Shown piece by piece: positions 10,781-40,276 of a DNA stretch of 56,259 nucleotides. The notes under the pieces are model-generated. The model made no database searches. It saw only the letters and a program-made list of their open reading frames with translations, and had not been told where the DNA came from. The stretch's first letter is position 1. Each line of letters begins with the position of its first letter. The translations under genes and the position numbers were made by a program. The DNA lies in assembly GCA_041674765.1 (NCBI GenBank), contig JBAYVE010000006.1, positions 1 through 56,259 of the forward strand. The letters run 5' to 3'. This stretch comes from Patescibacteria group bacterium. GTDB lineage: Bacteria > Patescibacteriota > UBA1384 > XYA2-FULL-43-10 > 1-14-0-10-43-13.

Positions 10781-11017
10781 ATGGAGATTAATTTAACACT
10801 AGAGAGTATTTTTGGCGCTTTTATGCTCAGCGCTTTTGTGTCATTTTTCCTGACCGGTCAATTGTTGATAAGAGCCATAATCTTTGTGTTCATATGGCAG
10901 ATATTCACTCCGCTCTGCGATGTTTGGTACCTGGATATTTTTATGTGCGCAATGCTGTTCGTGGCCATTGAGTTTGTTTACTTTGAAACTGTCCGCGCAT
11001 GTCGATCACTGCCATAA
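10781..11017 (+). CDS. Small multi-TM membrane protein
   Basis: Hydrophobic 78-aa ORF from ATG 10781. Confidence 0.5.
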   Translation: MEINLTLESIFGAFMLSAFVSFFLTGQLLIRAIIFVFIWQIFTPLCDVWYLDIFMCAMLFVAIEFVYFETVRACRSLP

Positions 11018-11126
11018 AACCAAATCGATTCGTGGAATTCTATGCAACCGATGTAACACCGTTCTTGGCTTGTGCGAAGACGACGATAAGTTGCTTTCGG
11101 CTTTGGTGAGGTATTTGAGGAAATGA
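10998..11126 (+). pseudogene. C-terminal remnant of an endonuclease VII-family nuclease
   Basis: HVDHCHKTKSIRGILCNRCNTVLGLCEDD...YL; N-terminal half with the first CxxC-containing motif absent. Confidence 0.7.
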
Positions 11127-11887
11127 CATGGCTATTCAGCAAAGCAATGATGGAGGATTGCGGGAACTCGCGCTCTTTGCCGGAGCTGGTGGAGGAATAC
11201 TCGGAGGCAAATTGCTCGGATGGAAAACCGTGTGCGCAGTTGAGTGTAATGCCTACGCAGCACAAGTTCTCGCGCAACGGCAGAATGATAGAACCATTGA
11301 ATCTTTCCCGATTTGGTCTGACGTGTGTAGTTTTGACGGAAAGCCGTGGAAAGGAATTGTTGACATCGTTTCTGGAGGCTTCCCGTGCCAAGACATCAGC
11401 TCAGCCGGGAAAGGCGCAGGTATCGACGGGGAGAAATCAGGACTATGGAAACACATGGCGCGCATCATCGATGAAGTTCAGCCTAGATTCGTGTTCGTGG
11501 AGAATTCACCACTCCTTGTTTCCAGAGGACTTGTCAGAATCCTTGGTGACCTTGCCATCATGGGGTTTGATGCGAGATGGGGAATTATTGGAGCGATCGA
11601 CGCCGGATTCCATCACAACAGGAAACGTTTATGGATTGCTGCCAACACCGACAGCAACAGATCACAAAGGATCAGCGCCGAATCAAGTGATAAGGCGAGA
11701 AAATCACAAGCAAAAGAGTCTGACATTGCGCGAGTGGTTAGCAAAATACAGCAAGGCGGAGAAAACTGTATACCCGAATCCTGGATTCTTAGAAGCAGCA
11801 ATGGGATGGCCTCAAGGATGGACAGAACTGTCGCCATTGGAAATGGACAGGTTCCAGCGGTGGCAGCAAGAGCATGGAATATGTTGA
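11123..11887 (+). CDS. Overlapping-frame MTase partner carrying motif IX (true start may be internal)
   Basis: 254 open codons over the MTase gene; LLPTPTATDHKG and NPGFLEAAMGWPQGWT. Confidence 0.7.
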   Translation: MTWLFSKAMMEDCGNSRSLPELVEEYSEANCSDGKPCAQLSVMPTQHKFSRNGRMIEPLNLSRFGLTCVVLTESRGKELLTSFLEASRAKTSAQPGKAQVSTGRNQDYGNTWRASSMKFSLDSCSWRIHHSLFPEDLSESLVTLPSWGLMRDGELLERSTPDSITTGNVYGLLPTPTATDHKGSAPNQVIRRENHKQKSLTLREWLAKYSKAEKTVYPNPGFLEAAMGWPQGWTELSPLEMDRFQRWQQEHGIC

Positions 11888-11904
11888 TGGGGACGGATAA
11901 ATAA
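11128..11904 (+). CDS. C5-cytosine DNA methyltransferase, main polypeptide (motifs I-VIII and X)
   Basis: LFAGAGG, GGFPCQ, VENSP, HNRKRLWI, GNGQVPAVA; no motif IX. Confidence 0.92.
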   Translation: MAIQQSNDGGLRELALFAGAGGGILGGKLLGWKTVCAVECNAYAAQVLAQRQNDRTIESFPIWSDVCSFDGKPWKGIVDIVSGGFPCQDISSAGKGAGIDGEKSGLWKHMARIIDEVQPRFVFVENSPLLVSRGLVRILGDLAIMGFDARWGIIGAIDAGFHHNRKRLWIAANTDSNRSQRISAESSDKARKSQAKESDIARVVSKIQQGGENCIPESWILRSSNGMASRMDRTVAIGNGQVPAVAARAWNMLMGTDK

Positions 11905-12038
11905 ATGAGCAAAATAACCCAAGCGCACGCGGTAAAGAATGCCAAGTTCGCATAATTGGCGTGTGCAATGGAAATAATGAAACTGTTGTATGGGCGCATG
12001 CGAACGGCCTAGCCTCTGGTAGAGGCGTTTGGCTCTGA
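11905..12038 (+). pseudogene. Frameshifted, truncated DUF1364/YbcO-like nuclease
   Basis: Restoring 1 nt after codon 6 gives MSKITQxARGKECQVRIIGVCNGNNETVVWAHANGLASGRG, then TGA. Confidence 0.7.
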
Positions 12039-12058
12039 CAAAAACGTGAATTGGACTT

Positions 12059-12346
12059 ATGAATAAAAAAGAACAACAATTCCATGACAAGCTCCGACAA
12101 ATCGGATGTGTGATATGTCGAGAATTTGAAGATGTCAGAACAGATCCGGAAATACATCACATTTCTCAAGGATCTGGAGAGAGAAGTCATTATATGTGCG
12201 CACCGCTGTGCGTATCTCATCATCGAATCGGAGTAACTTCGCTGCATGGCGCTGGCGTTAAGCGATTCTTGAGTATGCATGGATTGCCAACGGAATTTCA
12301 TTTGTTGGAATTGGTTAATAAATTCAGAGCGGAAGACGGAGTGTAG
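12059..12346 (+). CDS. Ref-like / His-Me finger Zn nuclease
   Basis: GCVICR, EIHHI, APLCVSHHRIG. Confidence 0.75.
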   Translation: MNKKEQQFHDKLRQIGCVICREFEDVRTDPEIHHISQGSGERSHYMCAPLCVSHHRIGVTSLHGAGVKRFLSMHGLPTEFHLLELVNKFRAEDGV

Positions 12347-12535
12347 ATGAAAAACCCAAGCACGCAAGAACTTGATAGAGGTTACTCAGAGTGCCAAGAC
12401 TGCCGCAATGGAATACATCTGCATCAGAGCGGATTTGAGTGTGATACACACATGTGTGCGCAATGCGGATGTCATGTTGTCAATAAAGAAGAGTTTTTTA
12501 AATTCCAGTCAGGAATAGAGGTGCTGTCAAAATGA
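12347..12535 (+). CDS. Small Cys-rich protein
   Basis: CQDC and CAQC pairs; coupled to both neighbours. Confidence 0.6.
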   Translation: MKNPSTQELDRGYSECQDCRNGIHLHQSGFECDTHMCAQCGCHVVNKEEFFKFQSGIEVLSK

Positions 12536-14232
12536 GAACATCAGCAGCGCGCGCACTGGCAGAGCTGGAGGCTACCGGACAAGATCACGAGTGGTATCCC
12601 ACTACTAACGAAATAATCGATGCATTCCATGCTCATGCCAGTTCATTTGAAATGAGCAGCATTCTGGATATTGGCGCCGGGGACGGGAAAGTCCTCAAAC
12701 GTTTCCAAGAGAAGAACAGCAAAATACCGGACTGTTACCGGACAGAGTATTTCGCAATCGAGAAAGCGCGGCCATTGCTGGACAGTTTACCGGTTGATGT
12801 CGGTATCCTCGGCACGGATTTTTGGGAACAATCGCTGCTTGATAAATCGGTTGATTGCATATTTTCGAATCCTCCGTATTCAGAGTTCGTTGATTGGTGC
12901 GTGAAAGTCATTCGAGAAGCAAATTCGAATTACATCTATCTGGTTATCCCGCAGCGATGGAAAGAGCAGAAGAAGATTATCGACGCTCTCGAGATCAGGA
13001 AAGCCGGTTATAAAGTCCTGGGTGAGTACGATTTTCTGAGTTCTGAGGATCGGCAAGCACGCGCAAAGGTAGACTTGGTGTTTATCTGGCTTTGCCATTC
13101 AGAATATAGTTCAAATAGCCACAAATACCATAAAGGGGTCAATGCAAATGTTGATCCATTTGCCCTTTGGGTGAATGAGTTCTTTGAGCTGAGTGATAAA
13201 AAGGATAAGCACGGATTATCTGAGTACGCTCAAGCGCAGGAAGATGCTAAGGCGAGGCAAGCAAATATCAGCAATTCTTTGGTGCCCGGCAGGAGCATGA
13301 TTGAAGTGCTTGATCAACTCTACCGGGAAGAGTTGGATGAGTTAATTAGCAACTATAAGCGCGTTTGCTCGCTGGATGATGCTCTCTTTAAAGAGCTTGA
13401 TATATCGGTCAAATCGGTCGTGTCTTCGATTAAAACCCGGATACATGGCCTGAAAAATGCTTACTGGCAGGAGTTATTCAATAACTATGAGCCGTTGACT
13501 GAACGCCTGACCTCAGCCAGCCGAAGCACATTTATCGAAAGTATCCGCAGGAAAACAAACATAGACTTCACGGCATCCAATGCCTACGCAATTACCGTAT
13601 GGGCGATTAAAAACGCCGATCAATATCTTGATAAGCAGATGATTGAGACATTCGGCAAGATGGTTGATGCTGCCTGTGTGGTCAACTACAAGTCAAATGA
13701 GCGAGTATTTAAGAAAAACTCATTTCGATATTACGCTGACGAAGATAAGCATAGTCACTTCAAACTTGATTACCGGATAGTCGTGGAACGAATGGGTGGT
13801 TTGGTACAAATCGGATCATATAACAGCTATAGCGCTATCGGTGGATTGTGCGAAAACGCAGCAAACTTTATTGACGATTTAATTGTTATCGCAAGAAATC
13901 TTGGTTTTGAATGCGATGATTCAATGAAATCACATGCATTCAAAAGCGGAGGAAAGGAAGAATTTTATTGCACAGACAAGCGCGGAAATGAAAGATTGCT
14001 GATGACTGTAAGGGCGTACATGAACGGCAACCTGCACATTAAATTCGACCAATCATTCATGCTGGCTTTTAACGTCGAAATAGGCCGGCTGCAAGGATGG
14101 ATTCATAACGCGCAGCAAGCAGCCGAGGAAATGGGCGAAAAGGTCGATAGCGTGCAAGAGCATTTCAATTCAGCATATTCATTGGGATCAGATAACAAAG
14201 TTGTTCGTTTATTGATAGGAGTTAATGAATGA
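12532..14232 (+). CDS. Amino (N6-adenine type) DNA methyltransferase with DUF4942-like C-terminal domain
   Basis: WYPT, ILDIGAGDG (motif I), FSNPPY (motif IV), C-terminal YMNGNLHIKF. Confidence 0.85.
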   Translation: MRTSAARALAELEATGQDHEWYPTTNEIIDAFHAHASSFEMSSILDIGAGDGKVLKRFQEKNSKIPDCYRTEYFAIEKARPLLDSLPVDVGILGTDFWEQSLLDKSVDCIFSNPPYSEFVDWCVKVIREANSNYIYLVIPQRWKEQKKIIDALEIRKAGYKVLGEYDFLSSEDRQARAKVDLVFIWLCHSEYSSNSHKYHKGVNANVDPFALWVNEFFELSDKKDKHGLSEYAQAQEDAKARQANISNSLVPGRSMIEVLDQLYREELDELISNYKRVCSLDDALFKELDISVKSVVSSIKTRIHGLKNAYWQELFNNYEPLTERLTSASRSTFIESIRRKTNIDFTASNAYAITVWAIKNADQYLDKQMIETFGKMVDAACVVNYKSNERVFKKNSFRYYADEDKHSHFKLDYRIVVERMGGLVQIGSYNSYSAIGGLCENAANFIDDLIVIARNLGFECDDSMKSHAFKSGGKEEFYCTDKRGNERLLMTVRAYMNGNLHIKFDQSFMLAFNVEIGRLQGWIHNAQQAAEEMGEKVDSVQEHFNSAYSLGSDNKVVRLLIGVNE

Positions 14233-14531
14233 GTGAAAAAGAAATTGCAAGTGAGTCAGGAAACATAGCTGATAAAGCCAAGAAAATTATTTTTGGAGAT
14301 CGTGAGAAAACTTACGGAGATCCAGGTAAGAATCTGCGCGTTATTGCTGGCATGTGGTCGGCCTATTTAGGCATTGAAATAACGCCACATCATGTGTGTG
14401 ACATGATGGTACAGCTTAAGCTGGCGAGGCTAAAGAATAACCCTGATCACGAAGATAGTAAGGTTGATGTTATTGGATACGCTTTGCTTAAAGAGAGGTT
14501 GTCAGAGCCAGTTAAAAATGACGAGTATTGA
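14229..14531 (+). CDS. DUF6378-like phage protein
   Basis: GDREKTYGDP..N...IAGMWSAYL, LKLARL, DSKVDVIGYA. Confidence 0.8.
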   Translation: MSEKEIASESGNIADKAKKIIFGDREKTYGDPGKNLRVIAGMWSAYLGIEITPHHVCDMMVQLKLARLKNNPDHEDSKVDVIGYALLKERLSEPVKNDEY

Positions 14532-14728
14532 TAGTAAAGCGGTTGATGCCTATGCGTGAGTGCAAGCAGGATTGTACTGTTTTGGTTGATACTGACTTTT
14601 CAGAAGATTTGATCGAGGCGGCAGTTGACACAGAGAATCAAGTGATTATTACGAGTAGTGGGCATGAGGTTAAATTTTCAGACTGCGCTGGATGGATTCC
14701 TTTGCCGAGACACGAACCTGGAGACTGA
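14528..14728 (+). CDS. Hypothetical protein
   Basis: TTG start coupled to upstream stop; GWIPLP C-terminus. Confidence 0.55.
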   Translation: MIVKRLMPMRECKQDCTVLVDTDFSEDLIEAAVDTENQVIITSSGHEVKFSDCAGWIPLPRHEPGD

Positions 14729-14729
14729 G

Positions 14730-14861
14730 ATGAGATACATAATTCTTTTTTTAATGTTTGTTGTATGGTCCGTGGCTCTTTACGCTGCAGATTCTTTTTA
14801 TCATAATATGCTAATCAGCATAGGTTTTGTGTACGGAGTTATGCTCATGCAAAAGCTGTAA
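14730..14861 (+). CDS. Small membrane protein, 43 aa
   Basis: Hydrophobic ORF directly after the previous stop. Confidence 0.5.
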   Translation: MRYIILFLMFVVWSVALYAADSFYHNMLISIGFVYGVMLMQKL

Positions 14862-14895
14862 ATAATTAATATGGGTGAGATAGAGGAATAAGCAA

Positions 14896-15069
14896 ATGCT
14901 TGAATTTGTGGAACACGATGATGGTGTGATTGCCATAGTGAGTGAAACCGGAGAGAAAATGGGGAACTTTATAAAAGTTCGTGGGATATACAGTTTATCG
15001 CTGAATAATCTTGTAAATAGCCATGGTTACCTTCGACAGATGGCTGACAAGCTGCAAGAGTTGAATTGA
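14896..15069 (+). CDS. Hypothetical protein, 57 aa
   Basis: Manual translation MLEFVEHDDGVIAIV...; GAGG RBS. Confidence 0.5.
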   Translation: MLEFVEHDDGVIAIVSETGEKMGNFIKVRGIYSLSLNNLVNSHGYLRQMADKLQELN

Positions 15070-15071
15070 CC

Positions 15072-15212
15072 ATGAAAATTCTTACGATACTTATATTATT
15101 AATGTTGAATGGATATATCTGGTATGCAACATTGTCTTGCCAATCAAAAGATGGCGTTACAGTTGTTGGTATAGGTCAATTCCACTGCGTGGATAAAAGT
15201 GTTATTAAATGA
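15072..15212 (+). CDS. Small membrane/secreted protein, 46 aa
   Basis: Manual translation MKILTILILLMLNGYIWYATLSC...GQFHC. Confidence 0.45.
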   Translation: MKILTILILLMLNGYIWYATLSCQSKDGVTVVGIGQFHCVDKSVIK

Positions 15213-15241
15213 TAAATGATTGCATAGGATTGCAGTAAGCA

Positions 15242-15598
15242 ATGAATAAAATGTACGCCCTTGGACGGCTAAAAACCGGAGAAATGAACAAAACAGAGCA
15301 AGCGTATAGAAACACGCTTGAGTTGATGAGAATAGCCGGCGAAATACTCTGGTATCGATTCGAGGGTATCAAGCTAAAACTGGCTGAAAACACAACATAC
15401 ACGCCTGATTTCTTTGTCATGCGATCGAGCGGAGAAATCGAGGCTCACGAAGTAAAAGGTTTCGCAATGGATGACTCTATGGTTAAGGTAAAGGTGGCAG
15501 CAGAAACATTCCCATTCAGATTTTATATCGTTAGAACTCGACTAAAACGCGATGGCGGGGGGTGGGATATTAAGGAGGTTGGGAATGGAAGATCATAA
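15242..15598 (+). CDS. PD-(D/E)xK nuclease, putative junction resolvase (DUF1064-like)
   Basis: NKTEQAY, YTPDFFV, HEVKG. Confidence 0.8.
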   Translation: MNKMYALGRLKTGEMNKTEQAYRNTLELMRIAGEILWYRFEGIKLKLAENTTYTPDFFVMRSSGEIEAHEVKGFAMDDSMVKVKVAAETFPFRFYIVRTRLKRDGGGWDIKEVGNGRS

Positions 15599-15830
15599 AA
15601 TGACAGACAAACGCAAGCCTGGTAACTTGCTTAAGTGGATCAGTTGCGGCGAGCAAATGCCTCTGATGACATTAAAAATTATTTTGAAAATAGATGGCAG
15701 CATTATGAATGTCGGGACAGGTGAAGAGCTGCATCTTTACGCTTCTGTTGCTCAAAATTGGGACGTCAGAAAATCTTGTATTGAGTGGGTGCCGTACACG
15801 GAAGAAACATGGAATGAGTTAAATAAATGA
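15585..15830 (+). CDS. Hypothetical protein
   Basis: AAGGAGG RBS before ATG 15585. Confidence 0.6.
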   Translation: MEDHKMTDKRKPGNLLKWISCGEQMPLMTLKIILKIDGSIMNVGTGEELHLYASVAQNWDVRKSCIEWVPYTEETWNELNK

Positions 15831-16024
15831 GCAGAGCGTTGCCATCGTGGATGTACAGAAACCCTGAAGAAGTGCTTGAGCGCAAGCAAGAATCGGAGGC
15901 AAGAAGGTCCTGTGTCGGTTGTATCCACGGCTTTACCATCCAGTTCAAAAATGGTCCGGAGATGGGTTGTGATAAGAATAAAAAATACGGAAGACGATGC
16001 GAACTTTACAAGTCGCTGAAGTGA
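15827..16024 (+). CDS. Small Cys-rich protein
   Basis: YRNPEEV, CVGC, GC..RC; ATGA coupling. Confidence 0.65.
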   Translation: MSRALPSWMYRNPEEVLERKQESEARRSCVGCIHGFTIQFKNGPEMGCDKNKKYGRRCELYKSLK

Positions 16025-16060
16025 ATGGTGCAAAAAGTTTTTTCTAAAAACGGAGGTTAT

Positions 16061-16582
16061 ATGTTTCGCAACGCAGAAACGGCTATAAGGTGGGCAGTGG
16101 ATATAAAAAGCAAAGTAATTATTGATGGGTCATCAATTAATGATATGTGCGGCAAGCCAAGACCGTCTTCCAGAAATGACTTGCTGCGCGGATTATCACC
16201 GCAAGAAGCGCATTTGCAAGCAGAGCTGATTCTCAGGCACATTGAGAGCATTGGGGATGATGCATGCAAGGATTACCTGCTTGCTAAGTTCTGCTACTCA
16301 GAAAGATTCGATTCTTTAATGCAAAGAATATTCTCGCGCATGCTGTACTCGAGTGGTGTACACAATAGGGATGTAAGAAAAGTAGTGTTAAGGTACTTGG
16401 GGGCAAAGATCAGTAAGCGAGAAATAAGAGAGTCGCTGCAATGTGATCGTAACAAAGTAAATTATTTGATTGATAAGATCTATGGAATTATTGATTCTGT
16501 ACATTATCAATCTCTCAATGATATAGAGAATAAATTCGCTAATTCAGGGCTGATTGAACGTAGGGGCGAGGCCGTTGCTTAG
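16061..16582 (+). CDS. Putative late regulator (Q-like antiterminator/activator)
   Basis: Last early gene before the late promoter; GGAGG RBS; C-terminal HTH-like segment. Function inferred from position. Confidence 0.55.
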   Translation: MFRNAETAIRWAVDIKSKVIIDGSSINDMCGKPRPSSRNDLLRGLSPQEAHLQAELILRHIESIGDDACKDYLLAKFCYSERFDSLMQRIFSRMLYSSGVHNRDVRKVVLRYLGAKISKREIRESLQCDRNKVNYLIDKIYGIIDSVHYQSLNDIENKFANSGLIERRGEAVA

Positions 16583-16606
16583 AAATAATAAAGTGAAATA
16601 AACCTC

Positions 16607-16635
16607 TTGACACTACTACATAGTAGTAGTAATAT
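16607..16635 (+). promoter_or_regulatory. sigma70 promoter with inverted-repeat operator in the spacer
   Basis: TTGACA-17 nt-TAATAT; ACTACTA-CA-TAGTAGT at 16612-16627. Confidence 0.75.
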
Positions 16636-16639
16636 ACTC

Positions 16640-17085
16640 GCATGATCGAGATGTTCTTGATCATGTGCAAAGAAGTAAATCTTGCACCAGATTATCGGTG
16701 CAGAAGCTGTCGGTGTTGGGATAAGCTTCGTCTGCAAGAACGTTCATGTGGAACGTGTCCTGGGGTAGACAGATACAAAGAAGCCTACATAGTAGGTGAG
16801 CAGTCAACACTTGATAGGGGTGACTCTATGACGGGTCCGGAAACGGGGCCGACGTTTTAAATAGCTTGTCTAAGCGAACGGTGTTAGAAGGTGGGAAGTA
16901 GTAGTATTACAAGTACATCAATAACACTCCGTCTCTTAGATAATCTGGCCGGTCCAGTATCCCGCTACTGGCATCTACACGGTAACTAAACTGACATAGG
17001 CGGCTGCTATGTGTGCTAGGACTTGAGTGCGCTATCTGGCGGTGTAGCGTTCTGACGCTGGTTATATACAGTGATATAGCCGCCA
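16640..17085 (+). ncRNA. Candidate structured non-coding RNA / leader
   Basis: At least 8 hairpins visible by eye; no convincing ORF. Confidence 0.45.
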
Positions 17086-17105
17086 ATTTTTAAGACCAAA
17101 GTAAT

Positions 17106-17312
17106 ATGAAAAGACCAGCGATCAATCCCACGATTGAGCAGATAAAAGCATCGCGAGCAATAGCCGGGCTGACACAAAAGCAAGCTGCCGAGCTTGTGAT
17201 GTGTACGGCCAGAGCTTGGGAGCAGTGGGAGTGCGGCAATCGACGCATGCACCCAGGACTGTACGATTATTTTCTGACTAAAACTGGTCAAAAAGTACTT
17301 GATTCCGTTTAA
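17106..17312 (+). CDS. XRE-family HTH regulator, 68 aa
   Basis: IKASRAIAGLTQKQAAELV...RAWEQWECGNRRM. Confidence 0.85.
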   Translation: MKRPAINPTIEQIKASRAIAGLTQKQAAELVMCTARAWEQWECGNRRMHPGLYDYFLTKTGQKVLDSV

Positions 17313-17327
17313 GAACAATGTTATAAA
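17299..17327 (+). promoter_or_regulatory. Second late (PR'-like) promoter
   Basis: TTGATT-17 nt-TATAAA with TG extension. Confidence 0.5.
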
Positions 17328-17361
17328 GTAATTTCTAATGTGGGTAAGTGCCCACAAAGAT

Positions 17362-17395
17362 AACCCGCTTGGCTTAATTGCTCTGCGGGTTTTTT
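17362..17395 (+). terminator. Intrinsic terminator ahead of lysis genes
   Basis: AACCCGC...GCGGGTT plus T tract. Confidence 0.75.
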
Positions 17396-17465
17396 ATTGC
17401 CTAAATTTTATCAATCAACAGTGTGATTATTATCACATTCAAAGAGCAAATGAAGGGGTAGCATC

Positions 17466-17891
17466 GTGCGGGGACTTTTTAAATTAAACGATGACGTGCC
17501 GGAAATGAAAAGCAAAATAGCTGATATGCAAGGGGAGTTGGAAGAGCACCGCAAAAAGCATGTTTTGTGCGAGAGTAACCACGAACAGCATAGCAAGTAC
17601 CGAAGAGAAAATGATGAGAAGTTGGGGCATTTGATCGAATGTGTGAAAGAGAATACAAAAGCGTCTCTTCATGGTGGTAAAACCCTTGAGGAAATACTTG
17701 GCATATTGAAAGAAAATGCCCCCGAGATAAATTACGTTAAAGAAAATAGAACAATAATAGATAGGACCAGAAACAAGTACATCACTGCAGACACCATCAA
17801 AGGATGGGCGGCATACCTGAGCATAATGATCGGCGGTATATCTGCAGTTTACGGCGTGATCCATTTCATTAAAAACCACCTAATAACATAA
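17466..17891 (+). CDS. Putative holin / membrane-anchored lysis protein
   Basis: Coiled coil plus C-terminal TM; first lysis-cluster gene. Confidence 0.5.
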   Translation: MRGLFKLNDDVPEMKSKIADMQGELEEHRKKHVLCESNHEQHSKYRRENDEKLGHLIECVKENTKASLHGGKTLEEILGILKENAPEINYVKENRTIIDRTRNKYITADTIKGWAAYLSIMIGGISAVYGVIHFIKNHLIT

Positions 17892-17894
17892 TCG

Positions 17895-18476
17895 ATGATA
17901 CCTGTAGCAATAGCAAAACCACTAGCAGAACTGGCATTGAAGTACGGAAGCAAAATGCTCGTTGGTTTGGTTGTTTCGCTATTCCTGATAGGCGTTTATA
18001 TTTATCACAGAAACCAATTGTTAGAGGAAGGCAAGGCAATTGAGCGTGCTGATTGGCTAGAGAAAGAAGCCAAAGAAAAAGCGGCCTTGGAAAAAGAATT
18101 GGGTGCCGCGATAAGTAGAGTGGCGAAGCAGAACGAGGATAACGATATCAACACTATCAAGGTGCAAAATGAAAAAGATGCTGAAATTGACCGGCTTCGC
18201 AACGTGCTTGCTGATAATGCTAAGCGGGTGCGAATCAGTGCAAAGCAGGAAAATTGTGCTGCAGGAACATTGCGTGGACAAGCCGGTGGTGCAGAATTCG
18301 CTAGTGAATCCCCCGGTGAGTCTGGAGTTGGAGGGACTGGAGCAAGCAATCAATCGCTTGACGAAAACCAGATAAATCAATTGACTTACGGCCTTTGGAT
18401 TGAGCGCGAGGAATTGAAGGTGCACTTAAAGGCATGCACTAAGAAACTTAAAACGCTGGTCGAAGTAGCTCACTGA
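17895..18476 (+). CDS. Rz-like inner-membrane spanin
   Basis: N-terminal TM, coiled coil, embedded lipoprotein gene. Confidence 0.8.
   Translation: MIPVAIAKPLAELALKYGSKMLVGLVVSLFLIGVYIYHRNQLLEEGKAIERADWLEKEAKEKAALEKELGAAISRVAKQNEDNDINTIKVQNEKDAEIDRLRNVLADNAKRVRISAKQENCAAGTLRGQAGGAEFASESPGESGVGGTGASNQSLDENQINQLTYGLWIEREELKVHLKACTKKLKTLVEVAH
18169..18375 (+). CDS. Rz1-like outer-membrane spanin, embedded
   Basis: Lipobox LSGC at residue 21; wholly inside the Rz-like gene in another frame. Confidence 0.8.
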   Translation: MKKMLKLTGFATCLLIMLSGCESVQSRKIVLQEHCVDKPVVQNSLVNPPVSLELEGLEQAINRLTKTR

Positions 18477-18477
18477 G

Positions 18478-18915
18478 ATGGGAAGATTCATAACTGATCT
18501 GGAAACCAAATATATTGGTAATGGATATTACGAACTTCTTTCGCCTCTTATCTATGAGTCAAAGACATTCGGTTATGTGATTGCCCCCGCCGGGTTCAAG
18601 ACAAACTTTGCAAGCGTGCCGAGATTGCCAATCGTGTATATGATTTTCGGCGGCTTGGGTCCTAAAGAATCGACGATTCACGACTGGTTATATACGCCAC
18701 CGCATGTTAAAGACAAATATTGCAACATGTCCGTAAGCAGGTCGGAAGCTGACAAAATTTTTAGGGGTGCAAGATACGCTTGCGATAGGGTTTCCCTTGA
18801 GGATTATGAGCAGGTAAGCGTCATCAGTATTGCGAAAAATATATGGGCGTACATTGGAGCCTGGATGATGTGGGTTGCGGTGAGTCTGTTTGGCTGGCGC
18901 CATTGGAAAAAATGA
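18478..18915 (+). CDS. DUF1353-like protein
   Basis: APAGFKTNFASVPR, IHDWLY, RSEADKIF. Confidence 0.85.
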   Translation: MGRFITDLETKYIGNGYYELLSPLIYESKTFGYVIAPAGFKTNFASVPRLPIVYMIFGGLGPKESTIHDWLYTPPHVKDKYCNMSVSRSEADKIFRGARYACDRVSLEDYEQVSVISIAKNIWAYIGAWMMWVAVSLFGWRHWKK

Positions 18916-19271
18916 ATATGAGATATGTGGTTGTCATGATTGCTCTTATGTTATCTGCAATCGTGTTTTGCATCGAGGCTAATGCAGCAGAGTACGTTGA
19001 TATCCGGTGCTGCGTTGAAGTGAAGCGCTACAAAAACGGCAAGATAATACGCAGCAAGGCGGCTGTCGAAGCTTTTGAGCGGATGTACCCATTGCCAGCA
19101 GGGATCAGCAGAGATGATTATCAAGTAGATCACGCTGTTCCTCTGGTGTGCGGTGGCGTGGATGAGCCGGTGAATATGATCTGGATGCACAAATCAGCAA
19201 AAACATGCGCAGAAGATTATTGTCAGGATCGGCATGAGCGATTAACGATGTGTGGGATCAAGAATAAATGA
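18912..19271 (+). CDS. HNH-type nuclease with signal peptide
   Basis: Signal peptide ending ANA; YQVDHAVPLVCGGVDEPVNM. Confidence 0.7.
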   Translation: MNMRYVVVMIALMLSAIVFCIEANAAEYVDIRCCVEVKRYKNGKIIRSKAAVEAFERMYPLPAGISRDDYQVDHAVPLVCGGVDEPVNMIWMHKSAKTCAEDYCQDRHERLTMCGIKNK

Positions 19272-19717
19272 TTGAACTATCTTTATTTAGGTTCCAATTA
19301 TCAGATGACTCAGTGATTGGATCATTAAGCATGAGAACGGACAAGGCTGAGGAATTCTTGTGCTACACGCTGGAAGATAAAGTTCGTGAGGTTCCGGGCA
19401 TACCGGTTAGAGAATGGAAAGTCTTCGGTAAAACCGCCATTCCAAAGGGTAAGTACGAAGTAAAGAAAACCAGGTCCACCAGATTCGGTAGAGATACGCT
19501 TCAATTAATGAATGTTCCTGGGTTTGAGGGCATAAGGATTCATGCAGGCAATACAAGCAATGACACGGAAGGCTGCATCTTGGTCGGGACATCAATAAAT
19601 ACTAATTCAATTAATGGATCTCAGTCTATATTGCAAAGCAGAGATGCTCTGCATAAGCTGGAGGCCAAATTATTCCCGATTCTGGATGATAATCAGCTTG
19701 TGTTTATTACGGTATGA
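19268..19717 (+). CDS. DUF5675-like putative endolysin
   Basis: CYTLED, TAIPKGKY, GIRIHAGNT..DTEGCILVG. Confidence 0.75.
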   Translation: MIELSLFRFQLSDDSVIGSLSMRTDKAEEFLCYTLEDKVREVPGIPVREWKVFGKTAIPKGKYEVKKTRSTRFGRDTLQLMNVPGFEGIRIHAGNTSNDTEGCILVGTSINTNSINGSQSILQSRDALHKLEAKLFPILDDNQLVFITV

Positions 19718-20202
19718 CCAACAAGTTTAGAAAGATAGTTGACTGGGAAGCAATGCGACCAGACTGGATGGCTGGCGTTAAATCAGTGCTCCAATTATCA
19801 GAAGAATATGGCGTATCGAGAGCAGCAATATTAAAGCACTGGGGTAAGGAAGGATTAGAGCGTGATCTGGCTGGGAATATCAAAGCTAAGGCTGCATTGG
19901 TCAAAGGATCTCCAGATCTGTTTGATAAATCTGGATTTGTATATGTGATTTACATAGATGACTCATCAAAGAATCGTTATTACAAAATAGGTATGGCTTC
20001 TGGATTTAGTTCAAGATTTAGTAATCATCAATGTGCGTCTCCGTTTGATATTTGTGTTGCATGCGTTTATTACGTCAACAACATGCGTTTAGAAGAAAGA
20101 ATTCTTCATGAGTTATACGCAGACAAAAGAGTTAAAGGTGAATGGTTCCAATTGGACATGGATGATCTGATAGCAATCTCTGCTAGATCATTATTGATAT
20201 GA
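19714..20202 (+). CDS. TerS-like HTH fused to a T5orf172/MUG113 GIY-YIG-like nuclease domain
   Basis: N-terminal ~63 aa align with the next gene's N-terminus; GFVYVI...YKIG...E..LH...RVKGEWF. Confidence 0.8.
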   Translation: MTNKFRKIVDWEAMRPDWMAGVKSVLQLSEEYGVSRAAILKHWGKEGLERDLAGNIKAKAALVKGSPDLFDKSGFVYVIYIDDSSKNRYYKIGMASGFSSRFSNHQCASPFDICVACVYYVNNMRLEERILHELYADKRVKGEWFQLDMDDLIAISARSLLI

Positions 20203-20783
20203 ATGAAAAAGACGCGGTTGATTGGTTAGCAGTAGAGGCAGACTATCGACCAAATAAATTATCTTTACGTGCAATTGGCGAGAAGTACGGATGCACTGAA
20301 GGTGCCATCCGCAAGCGTGCCAAGAAGGAAGGATGGGTAAGAGACTTATCTGAGAAGATCAAAAGCAAGGCTGATGATCTGGTACGCAGAGAGTTGGTAC
20401 GCAACAGTACGCAAACTGAGAAGGGTATTGTCGAAGCTAACGCACATAACAGCGCCACAATCCAGATTAATGAGCGCAAGGATGTATCAAGAGCAAGATC
20501 GATCGCAATGAGCCTCTTGGATGAGTTGGAATCACAGATAACAGATAAGTCATTATATTCAGATCTGGCAGAGTTATTGCAATCGCAAGATGGCGGCGTT
20601 CTTGATAAGTTGAATGAATTGTTTCAGAAAGTAACATCGTTCAGCGGGCGCACAGATAATATAAAGAAACTCAGCGAGACGTTAAAAACCTTAATCGATT
20701 TGGAGCGTAGGGTTTATAAGATCGATGAGGATAATTCGCAAGACACTTTTGAGGACTGGTTAAGAAAAGCTCGCAATGCTTGA
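20199..20783 (+). CDS. terS: Terminase small subunit
   Basis: DW..VEADY...SLRAIGEKYG...AIRKRAKKEGWVRDL; overlaps the terL start. Confidence 0.85.
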   Translation: MNEKDAVDWLAVEADYRPNKLSLRAIGEKYGCTEGAIRKRAKKEGWVRDLSEKIKSKADDLVRRELVRNSTQTEKGIVEANAHNSATIQINERKDVSRARSIAMSLLDELESQITDKSLYSDLAELLQSQDGGVLDKLNELFQKVTSFSGRTDNIKKLSETLKTLIDLERRVYKIDEDNSQDTFEDWLRKARNA

Positions 20784-22260
20784 GATAATTGATGACTTCA
20801 AGGAATTCGCGCCGAGCTTCCTGAAGGTTAAGAGCAAGGCTGGGCAGATTGTTCCGTTTCGCATGAATGTCGCTCAGGAATACATTCACTCAAAGCTCGA
20901 AGAGCAGCTAAAGAAAACCGGGATGGTCCGGGCGATAATTTTGAAAGGTCGGCAGCAGGGTTGCTCTACATACATCGAAGCCCGATTCTTTCATAAAACC
21001 ATAACCAATTTTGGTAAGAAAACATTCATTCTTACGCACGAACAGGCTGCTACCGCAAACCTGTTTGAAATGACCGATAGGTATTATCAGAACTTGCCGG
21101 AACGGTTGAAGCCAGAACTATCGGCATCAAATGCCAAGGAACTCAGCTTCAGAAAGTTGGATAGCAGTTTTGTTGTGGCCACGGCAGGTAATAAAGGTGC
21201 CGGTAGATCAGCAACGGCTCATCTGTTTCATGGATCCGAGGCGGCGTACTGGCCATCTGCAGAGGATCATCAAGCAGGGATTATGCAGACTATTCCGATG
21301 GAGCCGGGCACGGAGATCGTGCTTGAGTCTACCGCCAACGGAATTGGCAATATGTTCCATCGAGTTTGGCAGCAAGGCGAATCAAATGATGGTGGATGGA
21401 TAGCTATATTTGTTCCGTGGTTCTGGCAGCAAGAGTATCGTTATGAAGGTGTGGAGCTGGGGGATGAAGATTACAATTATGGGAAGATCTTCGGACTGGA
21501 CAAGCAACAAATGCAGTGGCGCCGGTACAAAATCGGGGAGTTAGGCGGTGATGTTAAGTTGTTCATGCGTGAGTATCCATCTTCCTCTGCTGAAGCATTC
21601 TCTGTATCAAGTGATAAGTCATTAATCGATTCATTCAAAGTCCAGTTGGCGCGAAAAGCTGTTGCGACACCAGACAGTTCTGCACCAAAAATTATAGGCG
21701 TGGACCCAGCTAGATTCGGTAACGATAGCACTTCAATGTTCATACGGCAGGGGAGAATTTCCGAGCGAATTAAGAAGGTTAAGGGAAAGGACACCATGGA
21801 GGTTGTGGGAGAAGTGATCTCCGCAATGAATACATATAAGCCGGATGCAGTGTTTGTTGATCAAGGTGGGATTGGCGCTGGTATCTATGACCGCCTAAAG
21901 GAGTTGGGCTATGTGAATGTGTTTGCTGTCAACTTTGGCGGTGATGCATTGGACAAAAAGAAGTATTACAACAAACGTTCTGAAATGTGGTGCTTGATGC
22001 GTGACTGGATTGTATCTCAGCCTGCGCAAATACCTGATGATGATGTGCTGGAAACAGACCTTTGCGGCCTGCATTATAGTTACGACTCTGACGGAAGGAC
22101 AAAGCTTGAATCAAAGGATGATGCGAAAAAAAGAGGTATTAAAAGCCCTGACGATGGAGATGCACTCGCGCTTACGTTCGCAATGCCGGTAAAGAGAAAA
22201 GAATTTAACAAAGGATCATTCGGTTCATTTAAACCATCTGTGACAGGATTCGGTGGGTAG
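20776..22260 (+). CDS. terL: Terminase large subunit
   Basis: ILKGRQQGCST, HGSEAAYW, ESTANG, GVDPARFGND, SPDDGDALALTFA. Confidence 0.95.
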   Translation: MLEIIDDFKEFAPSFLKVKSKAGQIVPFRMNVAQEYIHSKLEEQLKKTGMVRAIILKGRQQGCSTYIEARFFHKTITNFGKKTFILTHEQAATANLFEMTDRYYQNLPERLKPELSASNAKELSFRKLDSSFVVATAGNKGAGRSATAHLFHGSEAAYWPSAEDHQAGIMQTIPMEPGTEIVLESTANGIGNMFHRVWQQGESNDGGWIAIFVPWFWQQEYRYEGVELGDEDYNYGKIFGLDKQQMQWRRYKIGELGGDVKLFMREYPSSSAEAFSVSSDKSLIDSFKVQLARKAVATPDSSAPKIIGVDPARFGNDSTSMFIRQGRISERIKKVKGKDTMEVVGEVISAMNTYKPDAVFVDQGGIGAGIYDRLKELGYVNVFAVNFGGDALDKKKYYNKRSEMWCLMRDWIVSQPAQIPDDDVLETDLCGLHYSYDSDGRTKLESKDDAKKRGIKSPDDGDALALTFAMPVKRKEFNKGSFGSFKPSVTGFGG

Positions 22261-22291
22261 ATAGATCAAACTACAGAAGTACAACACACAT

Positions 22292-22313
22292 ACCCGCCTA
22301 GTGCGGGTTTTTT
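22292..22313 (+). terminator. Intrinsic terminator after terL
   Basis: ACCCGC-CTAGT-GCGGGT plus T tract. Confidence 0.75.
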
Positions 22314-22333
22314 GTTTTATAGGAGATGAAATT

Positions 22334-22660
22334 TTGGCAAAGATAGCAAAGTCGACAGCTAACCAAGCATCAATACAAGCCGCAGTTGGACCAGTTGTCC
22401 TTAATGGAGTAGTAGGATACACGGCGAAAATTTCGTCTCAATACATTCTTTTCTTCGATTTAGCGGCTGCGCCAGATGATGGAGCCGTTCCTGAGTTCAT
22501 GCTGTTAGTCCAAGCATCAAGCACATTTACCATAGATTTCGGATTCCATGGATATGAGTTTAAAAATGGATTGTACATATGCAATTCATCTACACAGCAA
22601 ACCAAAACCATTGGATCCGCAGACTGTTGGTTTAACGCTCAGATGAGGAGCAGCATCTAA
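22334..22660 (+). CDS. Small beta-rich putative virion protein
   Basis: AGGAG 8 nt before TTG 22334; YILFFD...PDDGAVP...GLYICNSST. Confidence 0.65.
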
Positions 22661-24468
22661 TGGCAAGTTTTTCAAATGGAGGAACTTCTGGGGGTGGCGC
22701 TCCCGGAGCTGATGGTGCTGACGGAGATTTTATATATCATGGTTACGCATCTGACTCGGCAGGTACTGATTTCTCGCTGTCTCCAGCAGTCAACCTCAAG
22801 TACATATCAATACTCAGATCGGAAGTTGAAATAGCGGTCCCAGATTTGGCAGACTTTGTTTCAGGATGGTATAAATATTTGGGTGATGATGGTGCCGCAG
22901 GTGCAGAAGGCTCTCCTGGAGCGACCGGGCCAGCTGGTCCAACAGGGGCAACCGGTCCACAAGGTCCTCAGGGCATTGATGGTACAGAAGGTCCGCAAGG
23001 TCCTCAGGGGATCCAAGGTGTGACAGGGGCAACAGGTTCAACAGGTGCTCAAGGATTAACCGGTCCAACCGGCGCTACAGGACCGACCGGACCAACAGGG
23101 GCGACCGGCGCTCAGGGTCCTACCGGTCCAACCGGCGCAACCGGGGCAACCGGTGCTGATGGCGTAACAATTCACTCTCTAATAGAAAAGCATTTCTACA
23201 AATTTGATACAGGTATATTAGACAATCGTCCCGGCGCCGGTAAAAGTAAGATCAATAACTCTACTGTAATAAGCGCAAGTCTAATCTTTATCGATGACAT
23301 TGATAATAATGGATTGAATCAGGAAGGCTGGATACAGTCAATCCGAGCAGGCGACAAGTTGGTCTACCGTGATATCACGGACACAACCACGTACATTACG
23401 GTGACATTTACTGATGTAGCGACAACGCGCGTTGATTACTGGGGCGTGCCTATAACAGCAACGGGCACAAAGCCGGCAGACGAAGAACCGTGCCTCGTGT
23501 ACTTTATCAGCAAGGGCGCAGAGAAAGTCCTAAGACTGTCAGGTGATTTTGCTTTCTGGAATGGCACGGATTTGGTTGATAGTAACGATGTTGTTATATC
23601 CAATCCGTTGACATATGCAACTTGCGAGGACAAGGGAACTCCGGCAACGTTTAGCGGCAAAACAGCGATAGTTGTTAACCCAGGGGATAATGCAGATGGG
23701 TTGCCTAACTCAATTTATTGCAATGGGTCGAAATGGCAATATATGGGAGAGGGCAAGATTGCTCAAGGTTGCCCAATGCTCAAGGTTACCGCTCCTGCTG
23801 CGACATTCATTGGTACTTATACACTTGCTAATTCAAGTGGGAATACGAGCGTAACAGGTGCTGGTGCTCATGGGTTAACGACCGCTGTATCGGTGTCCAC
23901 CACTAACCCAGTATATGTAAGAGTTTTGAGTGGTACAAATTGGGTTCCGGGTTTGTATAAACTCATATCGATCACAGATGCGGGCAGTCAACTAACTATT
24001 GACCATCCTTACTCTGCATCACTTGGTCAGCCAACATTCGCGCTAGTCGGGGCGTCAGTAGAGATAATCAGGCTAAAAATACCGTCTCTTTCTGTGACTG
24101 GCGGCGCTAAATTGGTTGCTACGTTTGATCATACTGCGGTAGCGACTGCAAGCAGAACTGTCGAGGTGCGGCATACAACAAATGGAGGCGCCGTAGATAG
24201 CGGAACAGCGCTCCTGTCACTAGCAGAGACGACGAATGCACCGATTTCCAAAGGTGAGTGGGGTTTCCGCAACCGAGCAGCAACTAACGTTAATCGTAAA
24301 TTGCATAGCTCAGGTGATGTGGATGGATGGGGATCGGTAAACTCCGGTTCATCTGGCGAGGGAGCAATAGAGACAAACGTAGTTACGAATATCGTTATGT
24401 CGGCAATTTTCGCTGCTGCAAACGATTCTGTTAATTTAGAAACATACGCTTTGTATAACACGCTATGA
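22660..24468 (+). CDS. Collagen-repeat fibre/spike protein
   Basis: About 30 consecutive Gly-X-Y triplets (~22890-23163); beta-rich C-terminus. Confidence 0.8.
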
Positions 24469-39607: not shown

Positions 39608-40276
39608 ATGGTTGGTTTTCTTGGAATGATGGCGGCTGGCGCTGCGGTAGGTGCTAGGAATGCATCGAATATGGATGTTCAAGCACAGAACCAGATGGAG
39701 ATGGAAAGAATCCGCAGTAATATTGATATTGACCGTGAAGCGCTCAGGCAGAAGTATCTTGATAAGAAATTTGCGCAGCAATCGGAAATAGGTGCGCAAC
39801 AATTCAAGGCAAAGGCTTTATTGGACGAGTCAAGGTACCAAAGAGAAAGGCAAGATAAGCTGTCTGACAGTGAGGCAAATAGAAAACATCAGCTTGAACT
39901 AGAGGGTATCAAGGAATCTGGTCGAAATTCAAGATTTAATCAAAGACAATCTTTGCTAAAAGAGAAGGGGTCTTCTGGTCCGCAAAGTGCGTCTGGCGAT
40001 GTGAAAGCCTCTTCACCTATTGGCAAAGCTACGCAGGATCTTGTTCGGCTTGGGTTGGCTCCAGACAACCAGACCGCTTACGAGATGGCCATGAAGCTTG
40101 ATATCGTAAAAGCGGCGCAGCAAAACCCAATGAATAAATTCTCTGATGACGAGTTGTTGAATAGCGTGAACAGACTGACGAGAGGGTTATATCCATCAGG
40201 TAGTTCTCAGCAAACGCAGCAACCAACCAATGATTTAATTCGGTCATTTAATCCAAAAACAGGACGATTCGAGTAA
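39608..40276 (+). CDS. Putative ejection protein
   Basis: GMMAAGAAVG N-terminus plus coiled coil. Confidence 0.6.
   Translation: MVGFLGMMAAGAAVGARNASNMDVQAQNQMEMERIRSNIDIDREALRQKYLDKKFAQQSEIGAQQFKAKALLDESRYQRERQDKLSDSEANRKHQLELEGIKESGRNSRFNQRQSLLKEKGSSGPQSASGDVKASSPIGKATQDLVRLGLAPDNQTAYEMAMKLDIVKAAQQNPMNKFSDDELLNSVNRLTRGLYPSGSSQQTQQPTNDLIRSFNPKTGRFE

Follow-up and report, generated by a model that had tools for sequence, protein, structure and literature searches.

An Aca10-type cassette in a phage genome with a cargo of no known family and a candidate leaderless mini-protein as its payload

The DNA analysed here, contig JBAYVE010000006.1 of 56,259 nucleotides (the window), is the genome, about 56 kb long, of a phage found in metagenomes of landfill, wastewater, river, lake and plastisphere samples. 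Its terminase shares at most 45% identity with that of any deposited phage, the best matches being to Vibrio and Pseudoalteromonas phages. The subject of this study is a short inserted unit consisting of a promoter, a 442-nt cargo segment and a small gene for a helix-turn-helix (HTH) protein, which we identify with high confidence as an acr-aca (anti-CRISPR and anti-CRISPR-associated) cassette of a known kind, the Aca10 type. The coordinates of its features, and of those around it, are collected in Table 1. Loci fetched for comparison are designated L001, L002 and so on, and metagenome runs X7, X13 and so on.

Table 1. Features of the cassette, followed by those of its surroundings, in the window
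Feature	Position	Strand	Remarks
Inserted Aca10 cassette (moron)	16583-17289	+	Delimited by the variant in run X13 and by differing sequence 5' of 17290 in other contigs
Sigma-70 cassette promoter	16607-16635	+	-35 TTGACA 16607-16612, 17-bp spacer, -10 TAATAT 16630-16635
Operator O1	16612-16630		Perfect 19-bp palindrome ACTACTAC-ATA-GTAGTAGT; touches both promoter hexamers; read from sequence
RNA hairpin H1	16641-16665	+	Aca10-associated 5' leader motif; z -4.7
ORF72	16642-16860	+	72 codons; candidate leaderless zinc-ribbon mini-protein, status uncertain; CxxC knuckles C20/C23 and C36/C39
O2	16785-16795		Exact copy of the operator's central 11 bp (CTAC-ATA-GTAG = CTACATAGTAG); retained in L020
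GC-rich hairpin	16828-16858	+	GAAA tetraloop, then UUUU; terminator- or attenuator-like; sits on the ORF72 stop codon
ORF-free 245-nt spacer	16861-17105	+	5-7 stops per frame
Long interrupted stem	16864-16945	+	Folding z -3.5 (plus) and -1.1 (minus)
Hairpin CCAGTA/TACTGG	16954-16971	+	
Branched stem GGCGGCT...AGCCGCC	16999-17084	+	Followed by U5 (AAUUUUUAA)
aca10-family HTH repressor gene	17106-17312	+	68 aa; no Shine-Dalgarno sequence; short N-terminus
Resolvase-like gene	15242-15598		
185-aa ORF	16025-16582	+	Candidate Q-like late regulator; outside the cassette, context only
Candidate phage late promoter	17299-17327	+	TTGATT-17-TATAAA, by motif; overlaps the 3' end of aca; outside the cassette
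Hairpin and intrinsic terminator	17339-17397	+	Hairpin 17339-17356, then terminator 17362-17391 with U6; z -4.74; conserved in L002 and L020
Holin-like gene	17466-17891		
Rz/Rz1-type spanin, DUF1353 and DUF5675 genes, then terminase	from 17895		

The 68-residue open reading frame (ORF) that an initial annotation, made from the sequence alone, had recognised as an HTH gene is confirmed. Over residues 8-60 its product matches PDB entry 7XI5, Aca10 of Pseudomonas citronellolis (PMC9410881), with an E-value of 8.7e-14, and it matches HTH_31 with an E-value of 3.6e-5. For Aca10, DNA binding has been shown to depend critically on R44, and dimerisation on G49 (PMC9410881); the window protein keeps the equivalents of both, together with those of Q22 and R34, and the sequence RRMHP is invariant among its 12 closest homologues. 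In the L020 lineage the substitution T17091C shortens the U-run ahead of aca and also removes an in-frame stop, which explains the 116-aa gene call P0002.

The extent of the cassette is revealed by run X13, in which a variant of the phage, present at a depth of 44, has position 16582 joined to 17290 through the sequence CGCAA only. The whole cassette is missing from this variant, and it is thus a moron. Related modules occur in several settings. In L002-L006, which represent a near-identical sister phage, the cargo is a 63-aa protein and a Tad2-like gene follows the terminator, whereas L020 carries the same cargo element as the window, again with a Tad2-like gene. The module follows an integrase gene, convergent with an endolysin gene, in L007-L014; it adjoins a tRNA-Asn remnant in L023, where it carries a different small protein; and in L027 the cargo is a 106-aa protein accompanied by a second ORF. 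The locus shows modular swapping of cargo between a conserved 5' leader and the 5' end of aca. The Tad2-like genes (PF11195) have a terminator of their own and are inserted downstream of the aca terminator, ahead of the holin-like gene (L002 3027-3308 and L020 760-1041); none is present in the window, and this intergenic position is a hot spot of accessory cargo. Their presence in sister phages supports a probable anti-defence context for the cassette, one of the possibilities raised in the initial annotation. As a separate observation, an 18-nt direct repeat, 83% identical, links TTTAAGACCAAAGTAATA, situated just before the aca start (17089-17106), with TTTAAGAACAATGTTATA, which spans the aca stop and the spacer of the late promoter (17308-17325); it may be a recombination scar from insertion of the cassette.

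The cassette promoter matches the consensus at 10 of 12 positions and is conserved along with the cassette in L002, L007, L023 and L027. Transcription is predicted to begin at A16642, 7 nt 3' of the -10 hexamer. The promoter itself stands as first annotated; the inverted repeat noted in its spacer is also present but is longer than was claimed, forming the perfect palindrome O1, the putative operator. Its inner TACTAC/GTAGTA is invariant in five cassette types (those of the window and the four loci just named), and its position and size fit the 19-21 bp site of Aca10 (PMC9410881). Elsewhere among the variants the centre of O1 changes while the arms are kept, ATA being replaced by TAT (X13), ATG (X14) or ATT (X17 and L007). 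Run X19 combines T16621C with a 3-nt deletion in the region 16620-16624, which would shorten the promoter spacer and may mean an inactivated cassette.

Copies of the operator motif are also found in the transcribed region. O2, read as RNA, gives the hairpin CCUAC-AUA-GUAGG. The earlier report that AGTAGTAGTA recurs at 16897-16906 is correct; in fact the right operator half-site is repeated there with a degenerate -10 (AGTAGTAGTATTA, 16897-16909). The sequence CTACNNNGTAG has three matches in 56 kb, against 0.21 expected. In the protein-cargo cassettes, by contrast, the operator motif is confined to the promoter and O2 is absent. The centre-to-centre distances between the copies, 169 and about 106 bp, are near whole helical turns, a spacing that is not statistically compelling but that would suit cooperative binding or looping.

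Transcription from A16642 would open with the hairpin H1, in which the AUG codons at 16642 and 16663 are both buried by pairing. All nine core pairs form in each of the five cassette types (100% paired), two of them with changes on both sides; slid controls are 33-65% paired. A covarying RNA hairpin directly after the transcription start has been reported for aca10 operons (PMC13551039, NAR 2026), and H1 is, as far as sequence and pairing can tell, this 5' untranslated region (UTR) motif. Since H1 is common to the protein-cargo cassettes, it is a regulatory leader and not cargo. Identity with those cassettes ends at about 16660-16664 and returns at about 17108-17123, and the second leader hairpin and GGAG Shine-Dalgarno (SD) sequence that they usually possess are missing here. 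The analogy with acr-aca operons drawn in the initial annotation is therefore upheld by the Aca10 homology, the placement of the operator, the 5' hairpin and the mobility of the cassette.

What sets the locus apart is the segment between H1 and aca. For 145 Aca10-like loci with enough upstream sequence, we measured how far aca lies from the closest co-directional ORF of 40 aa or more. The median is 23 nt; a protein cargo is thus the norm for Aca10 loci. The expected small acr gene, led by a ribosome-binding site (RBS) and abutting aca, is not found at the locus studied here.

Searches for relatives of the cargo gave uniformly negative results. Rfam 15 returned no match at the gathering score in the window and none in the cargo at an E-value of 10, CRISPR direct-repeat families included; the only two matches, with E-values of 0.2-8, are due to chance and both lie outside the cargo. 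ARAGORN found no tRNA or tmRNA. In the cargo TRF detected no tandem repeats at score 30, there were no CRISPR-like repeats, and nothing came within three mismatches of the CRISPR I-F repeat consensus, the host's own repeats not having been identified. Megablast and blastn against phages, plasmids and Escherichia coli found no match to the cargo, nor did exact-pattern scans of IMG/VR and metagenomes, and an 18-mer exact-pattern scan of genomes yielded chance matches without extended similarity. Against 174 fetched loci, 142 further Aca10 loci among them, blastn and nhmmer recovered only L020, with its copy of the same element. A six-frame concatenated protein query of the cargo also found no match, a weak negative since a known self-match was missed as well. 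No tandem copy of the promoter region was found inside the segment, and antisense complementarity of the cargo to the rest of the phage does not go beyond a 14-mer at an E-value of 0.08. The cargos of this Aca10 subfamily have no match in Pfam, PHROG or PDB. The 442-nt segment thus appears to fall in no known RNA or protein family, in agreement with the initial annotation as regards RNA. The accompanying suggestion of a toxin-antitoxin RNA is not sustained, given the lack of tandem repeats, the lack of a toxin-like gene and the identity of the downstream gene as an Aca10 homologue. With no distant homologue of the cargo, the input to a covariation analysis is effectively a single sequence. Covariation, put forward at the outset as a check on the RNA, is seen for the leader hairpin H1 across the five cassette types.

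Three features had escaped the initial annotation: ORF72, the terminator-like hairpin at its stop codon and the late promoter downstream. The first of these is our leading candidate for the payload, at a little short of an even chance. ORF72 opens at the predicted +1, the A 7 nt after the -10 hexamer, and its AUG would consequently be 5'-terminal. The product, which contains ...YRCRSCRCWDKLRLQERSCGTCPG..., carries two CxxC knuckles in the manner of a zinc ribbon. With the leader kept fixed, the leader ORF stays open for at least 72 codons in 0.96% of shuffles (P 0.0096), and any plus-strand ORF with the pattern CxxC-x6-25-CxxC arises in 0.12% (P 0.0012). AlphaFold (AF2), run without an alignment, predicts four short strands in residues 11-40 with a predicted local distance difference test score (pLDDT) of 62-72, and disorder beyond residue 47. 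Among the natural variants of ORF72 the knuckle cysteines are never altered and both substitutions in codons 12-41 are synonymous. A circulating variant with an inserted T (L176, run X7) keeps residues 1-42, the frame shifting only after codon 42, and the functional part of the mini-protein would be about 42 codons. There are also hints that the 5'-terminal AUG may be used in protein-cargo cassettes, through dual initiation or coupling: the leader AUG reads in frame into the cargo ORF, with no stop between them, in L002 (2435-2680), L023 (722-976) and L027 (63-437), and in L007 (1142-1195) a 1-nt difference shifts its frame so that the stop falls 2 nt before the cargo ATG.

A number of observations weigh against a protein payload. 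The zinc-ribbon pattern was spotted post hoc. The AF2 model is of low confidence overall (pLDDT 55) and a Foldseek search with it gave no match, while phmmer against 1.84e9 representative proteins found only the variants of ORF72 itself and one spurious Cys-rich repeat protein. ORF72 lacks an SD sequence, and both candidate AUGs are paired inside H1. Its changes amount overall to three synonymous, six non-synonymous and one frameshift, with no clear purifying selection outside the core; moreover, the two synonymous core substitutions also preserve RNA pairing and so cannot discriminate protein from RNA. Lastly, even with ORF72 counted, the gap before aca is 246 nt, the largest of the 145 loci.

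Several of these points favour the alternative of the initial annotation, in which the payload is RNA rather than protein. On this view the Aca10-controlled promoter would drive a non-coding, structured transcript of about 215-450 nt that serves as an RNA decoy or inhibitor of a host defence component, and ORF72 would be fortuitous. We regard this as rather unlikely, and protein as somewhat more likely than RNA. The cargo has the largest ORF-free stretch before aca among the 145 loci and no SD sequence anywhere, and the frameshift variant of ORF72 circulates; RNA anti-CRISPRs provide a precedent (PMC10651486). The stems listed in the initial annotation are all present. That they exceed chance holds only in part: of the sub-domains, just H1 and the long interrupted stem fold better than shuffled sequence, the latter in a strand-specific manner, whereas the branched stem (z about -1) does no better than shuffles. 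For the 464 nt from 16642 to 17105, which hold no ordinary gene, the folding z against shuffled sequence, a check proposed with the RNA claim, is -2.33 on the plus strand and -0.5 on the minus strand. This must be set against the background: z is -2.7 for the aca coding region, and among the 200-nt windows of the first 8 kb, 7% reach -2.3. The overall folding energy of the cargo is unexceptional for this genome.

Natural variation also bears on the RNA. L020 and the contigs of more than 12 runs supply 17 cargo substitutions in two main lineages. At positions with a base-pairing probability above 0.9, five single-nucleotide polymorphisms (SNPs) keep pairing and none breaks it (permutation P about 3e-4); above 0.8 the count is five to one (permutation P 0.004), and above 0.5 it is five to five, which is not significant (P 0.14). 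The five changes in the first class convert A-U to G.U, U.G to C-G or G.U to A-U; U16836C, in the hairpin at the ORF72 stop, turns a U.G into a C-G pair, and G16868A and U17017C likewise preserve pairing. No such signal is seen on the minus strand. This is real but thin evidence, comprising few independent events, dependent on the threshold and without double compensatory changes. A further observation on the fold is that the loop of the hairpin at 16683-16702 (16687-16696) is perfectly complementary over 10 nt to the 3' base of the long stem (16939-16948). This could be a long-range or pseudoknot contact, although chance alone would supply about 0.35 such pairs in the region.

Against the RNA stand the empty Rfam, tRNA/tmRNA and repeat searches, the lack of any distant homologue, the ordinary folding energy and the improbability of the CxxC..CxxC ORF by chance. 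Transcript data do not help it. Runs from wastewater labelled 'METAGENOMIC RNA-Seq cDNA' (X17 and X31-X33) cover the window evenly from 11000 to 23000, early and late genes and promoter DNA alike, as DNA or virion nucleic acid would, and are unusable as evidence of expression. The claim of an RNA cargo thus draws support from the structure-compatible SNPs and the one strand-specific stem, and loses ground in that H1 is leader and the first 219 nt form an open frame. A more specific version, that the 442-nt segment represents a new class of Aca-controlled structured RNA anti-defence effector, unrelated to CRISPR repeats, dispersed among wastewater and freshwater phages through cassette exchange and perhaps titrating Aca10 through the operator-like hairpin and half-site, seems to us more doubtful still.

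The distribution of the cargo bears on a third possibility, that the segment is inert filler. Illegitimate recombination would have replaced the acr gene, leaving an aca-only regulator with a long leader that spread by hitch-hiking with the phage. An orphan sequence without homologues, poor translation signals for both ORF72 and aca, and structure that is weak overall, with a 3' domain no better than shuffles, would all fit such an origin. So would the low share of the cargo-bearing form in several metagenomes, where its depth is 3-5 against 7-44 for other forms. Nevertheless, more than 12 metagenomes, from the five habitat types named at the outset, contain the same segment bounded by the same junctions. 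It occurs next to at least three different aca alleles, and both in the presence and in the absence of Tad2. Between lineages the cargo diverges by 2.5%, far less than aca (about 13.5%) and the leader (about 8%), a difference that also favours an RNA payload. The low divergence and the junctions to several aca alleles point to selection or recent spread. The recurrence of operator-like motifs within the segment and the non-random pattern of SNPs likewise tell against filler, which we consider improbable.

The neighbourhood of the cassette gives rise to a last alternative, anticipated in the initial annotation as an antitermination RNA. Directly upstream lies the 185-aa ORF, which has no match in Pfam, PHROG, NCBIfam or PDB. 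A homologue in L001 with 42% identity is situated directly 5' of a promoter, a terminator and a holin-like gene, the same layout as in the window (L001 2505-2590). This suggests that the two proteins belong to a Q-like antiterminator family that is unclassified, with no Pfam or PHROG model. The cassette promoter might then itself be the late promoter of the phage, its long leader serving as a Q-utilisation or antitermination RNA of the type of lambda PR'-qut-6S or HK022 put. The site between the Q-like gene and the lysis genes fits this proposal, and the L001 promoter, directly after its Q-like gene, has an inverted repeat of its own in the spacer (CAGCG-GGAAA-CGCTG); the sequence of that repeat is, however, unrelated to the window operator. 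Furthermore, the module of promoter, operator and hairpin moves with aca to non-late contexts, after an integrase gene and beside a tRNA. The candidate late promoter, in contrast, is retained in the cassette-less variant, whose joint lies at 17290, together with the hairpin and terminator that follow, and L001 has the same arrangement. We infer that the late promoter is the one at 17299-17327 and not that at 16607, and the antitermination RNA is set aside as very improbable. The terminator at 17339-17397 ends the cassette transcript and probably doubles as the tR'-like terminator of the late operon.

Two observations concern the remainder of the phage. The Rz-like spanin gene (17895-18476; PHROG 2466 and 13) has an ORF embedded in its +1 frame at 18169-18375 with a lipobox-like LSGC, an Rz/Rz1-type arrangement. 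After the tail-gene block a single ORF of 3794 aa (40276-51660) is a candidate for a giant virion or injected protein.

Returning to the reading that we prefer, in which the cassette delivers the ORF72 protein, the following sequence of events can be envisaged. The strong cassette promoter would fire early after phage entry, and ORF72 would be translated from its 5'-terminal AUG in the absence of an SD sequence, with H1 limiting initiation there. Aca10 dimers would accumulate and bind the spacer palindrome, possibly together with the weaker copies at 16785 and 16897, and their binding at the palindrome would shut the cassette promoter off. The hairpin at the ORF72 stop with its U4, and the 245-nt spacer with its branched stem and U5, may attenuate transcription and keep aca expression low. 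Judged by its context, the target of the payload would be a host defence system. As a complete statement, an Aca10-type anti-defence moron placed between a Q-like gene and the late promoter and having the ORF72 protein as its payload, this account is in our estimation as apt to be right as wrong.

Aca-regulated cassettes are the best genomic signpost to new anti-defence genes, and their known cargos are nearly all small proteins. A cargo that has neither an RBS nor an ordinary gene is therefore a cheap and well-defined test case for non-canonical anti-defence payloads. Were it a leaderless zinc-ribbon inhibitor, searches for acr genes with ORF and RBS callers would be missing payloads; a long structured RNA inhibitor would extend a mechanism until now known only for short mimics of CRISPR repeats or guides; and an inert cargo would make the locus merely one more Aca10 operon.

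Morons of lambda-type phages sit between Q/PR' and the lysis genes, as in the stx region of Stx phages. The window cassette resembles them in being an accessory unit between a late regulator and the late promoter, terminator and lysis genes, variably present in sister phages; it differs in having its own autoregulated promoter and in lying upstream of the late promoter rather than downstream. The closest comparison is with the acrIC7-acrIC6-aca10 operon of P. citronellolis (Lee et al. NAR 2022, PMC9410881), which shares a small homologous HTH protein in which R44 and G49 are kept, a promoter-spacer palindrome of 19-21 bp, aca as the last gene of the unit and an anti-defence neighbourhood. The conserved covarying hairpin at the transcription start is shared with the aca10 5' UTR motif (PMC13551039). 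The operators are unrelated in sequence, ACTACTAC-ATA-GTAGTAGT in the window and ATACGCTCA-T-TGAGCGTAT in P. citronellolis. There an SD-led acr gene abuts aca, whereas here a mini-ORF with a 5'-terminal AUG is followed by a 245-nt ORF-free structured spacer, and the window has extra operator-like copies within the transcribed region. None of the cargos in this subfamily is known to act against CRISPR. The dual DNA and RNA control exerted by Aca2 and Aca1 (Birkholz et al., as summarised in PMC13551039) similarly pairs a promoter operator with a structured 5' motif in the mRNA that could occlude translation starts; the window cassette differs in that its hairpin buries AUGs and not an SD sequence. 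RNA binding by Aca10 was tested and not detected (PMC13551039). Solitary repeat units, or Racrs (PMC10651486), and phage guide-mimic RNAs (bioRxiv 10.64898/2026.06.03.729762) are non-coding payloads that, like the window segment, lie just 3' of a promoter in phage anti-defence regions. Racrs, however, are short and mimic CRISPR repeats, whereas the segment is about 440 nt long, has no repeat-like unit and shares its 5' hairpin with protein-cargo cassettes. Overall, the regulatory frame of the locus displays three defining features of Aca10 operons, the HTH protein, the palindrome in the promoter and the 5' hairpin, and the unusual part, on this comparison, is the cargo.

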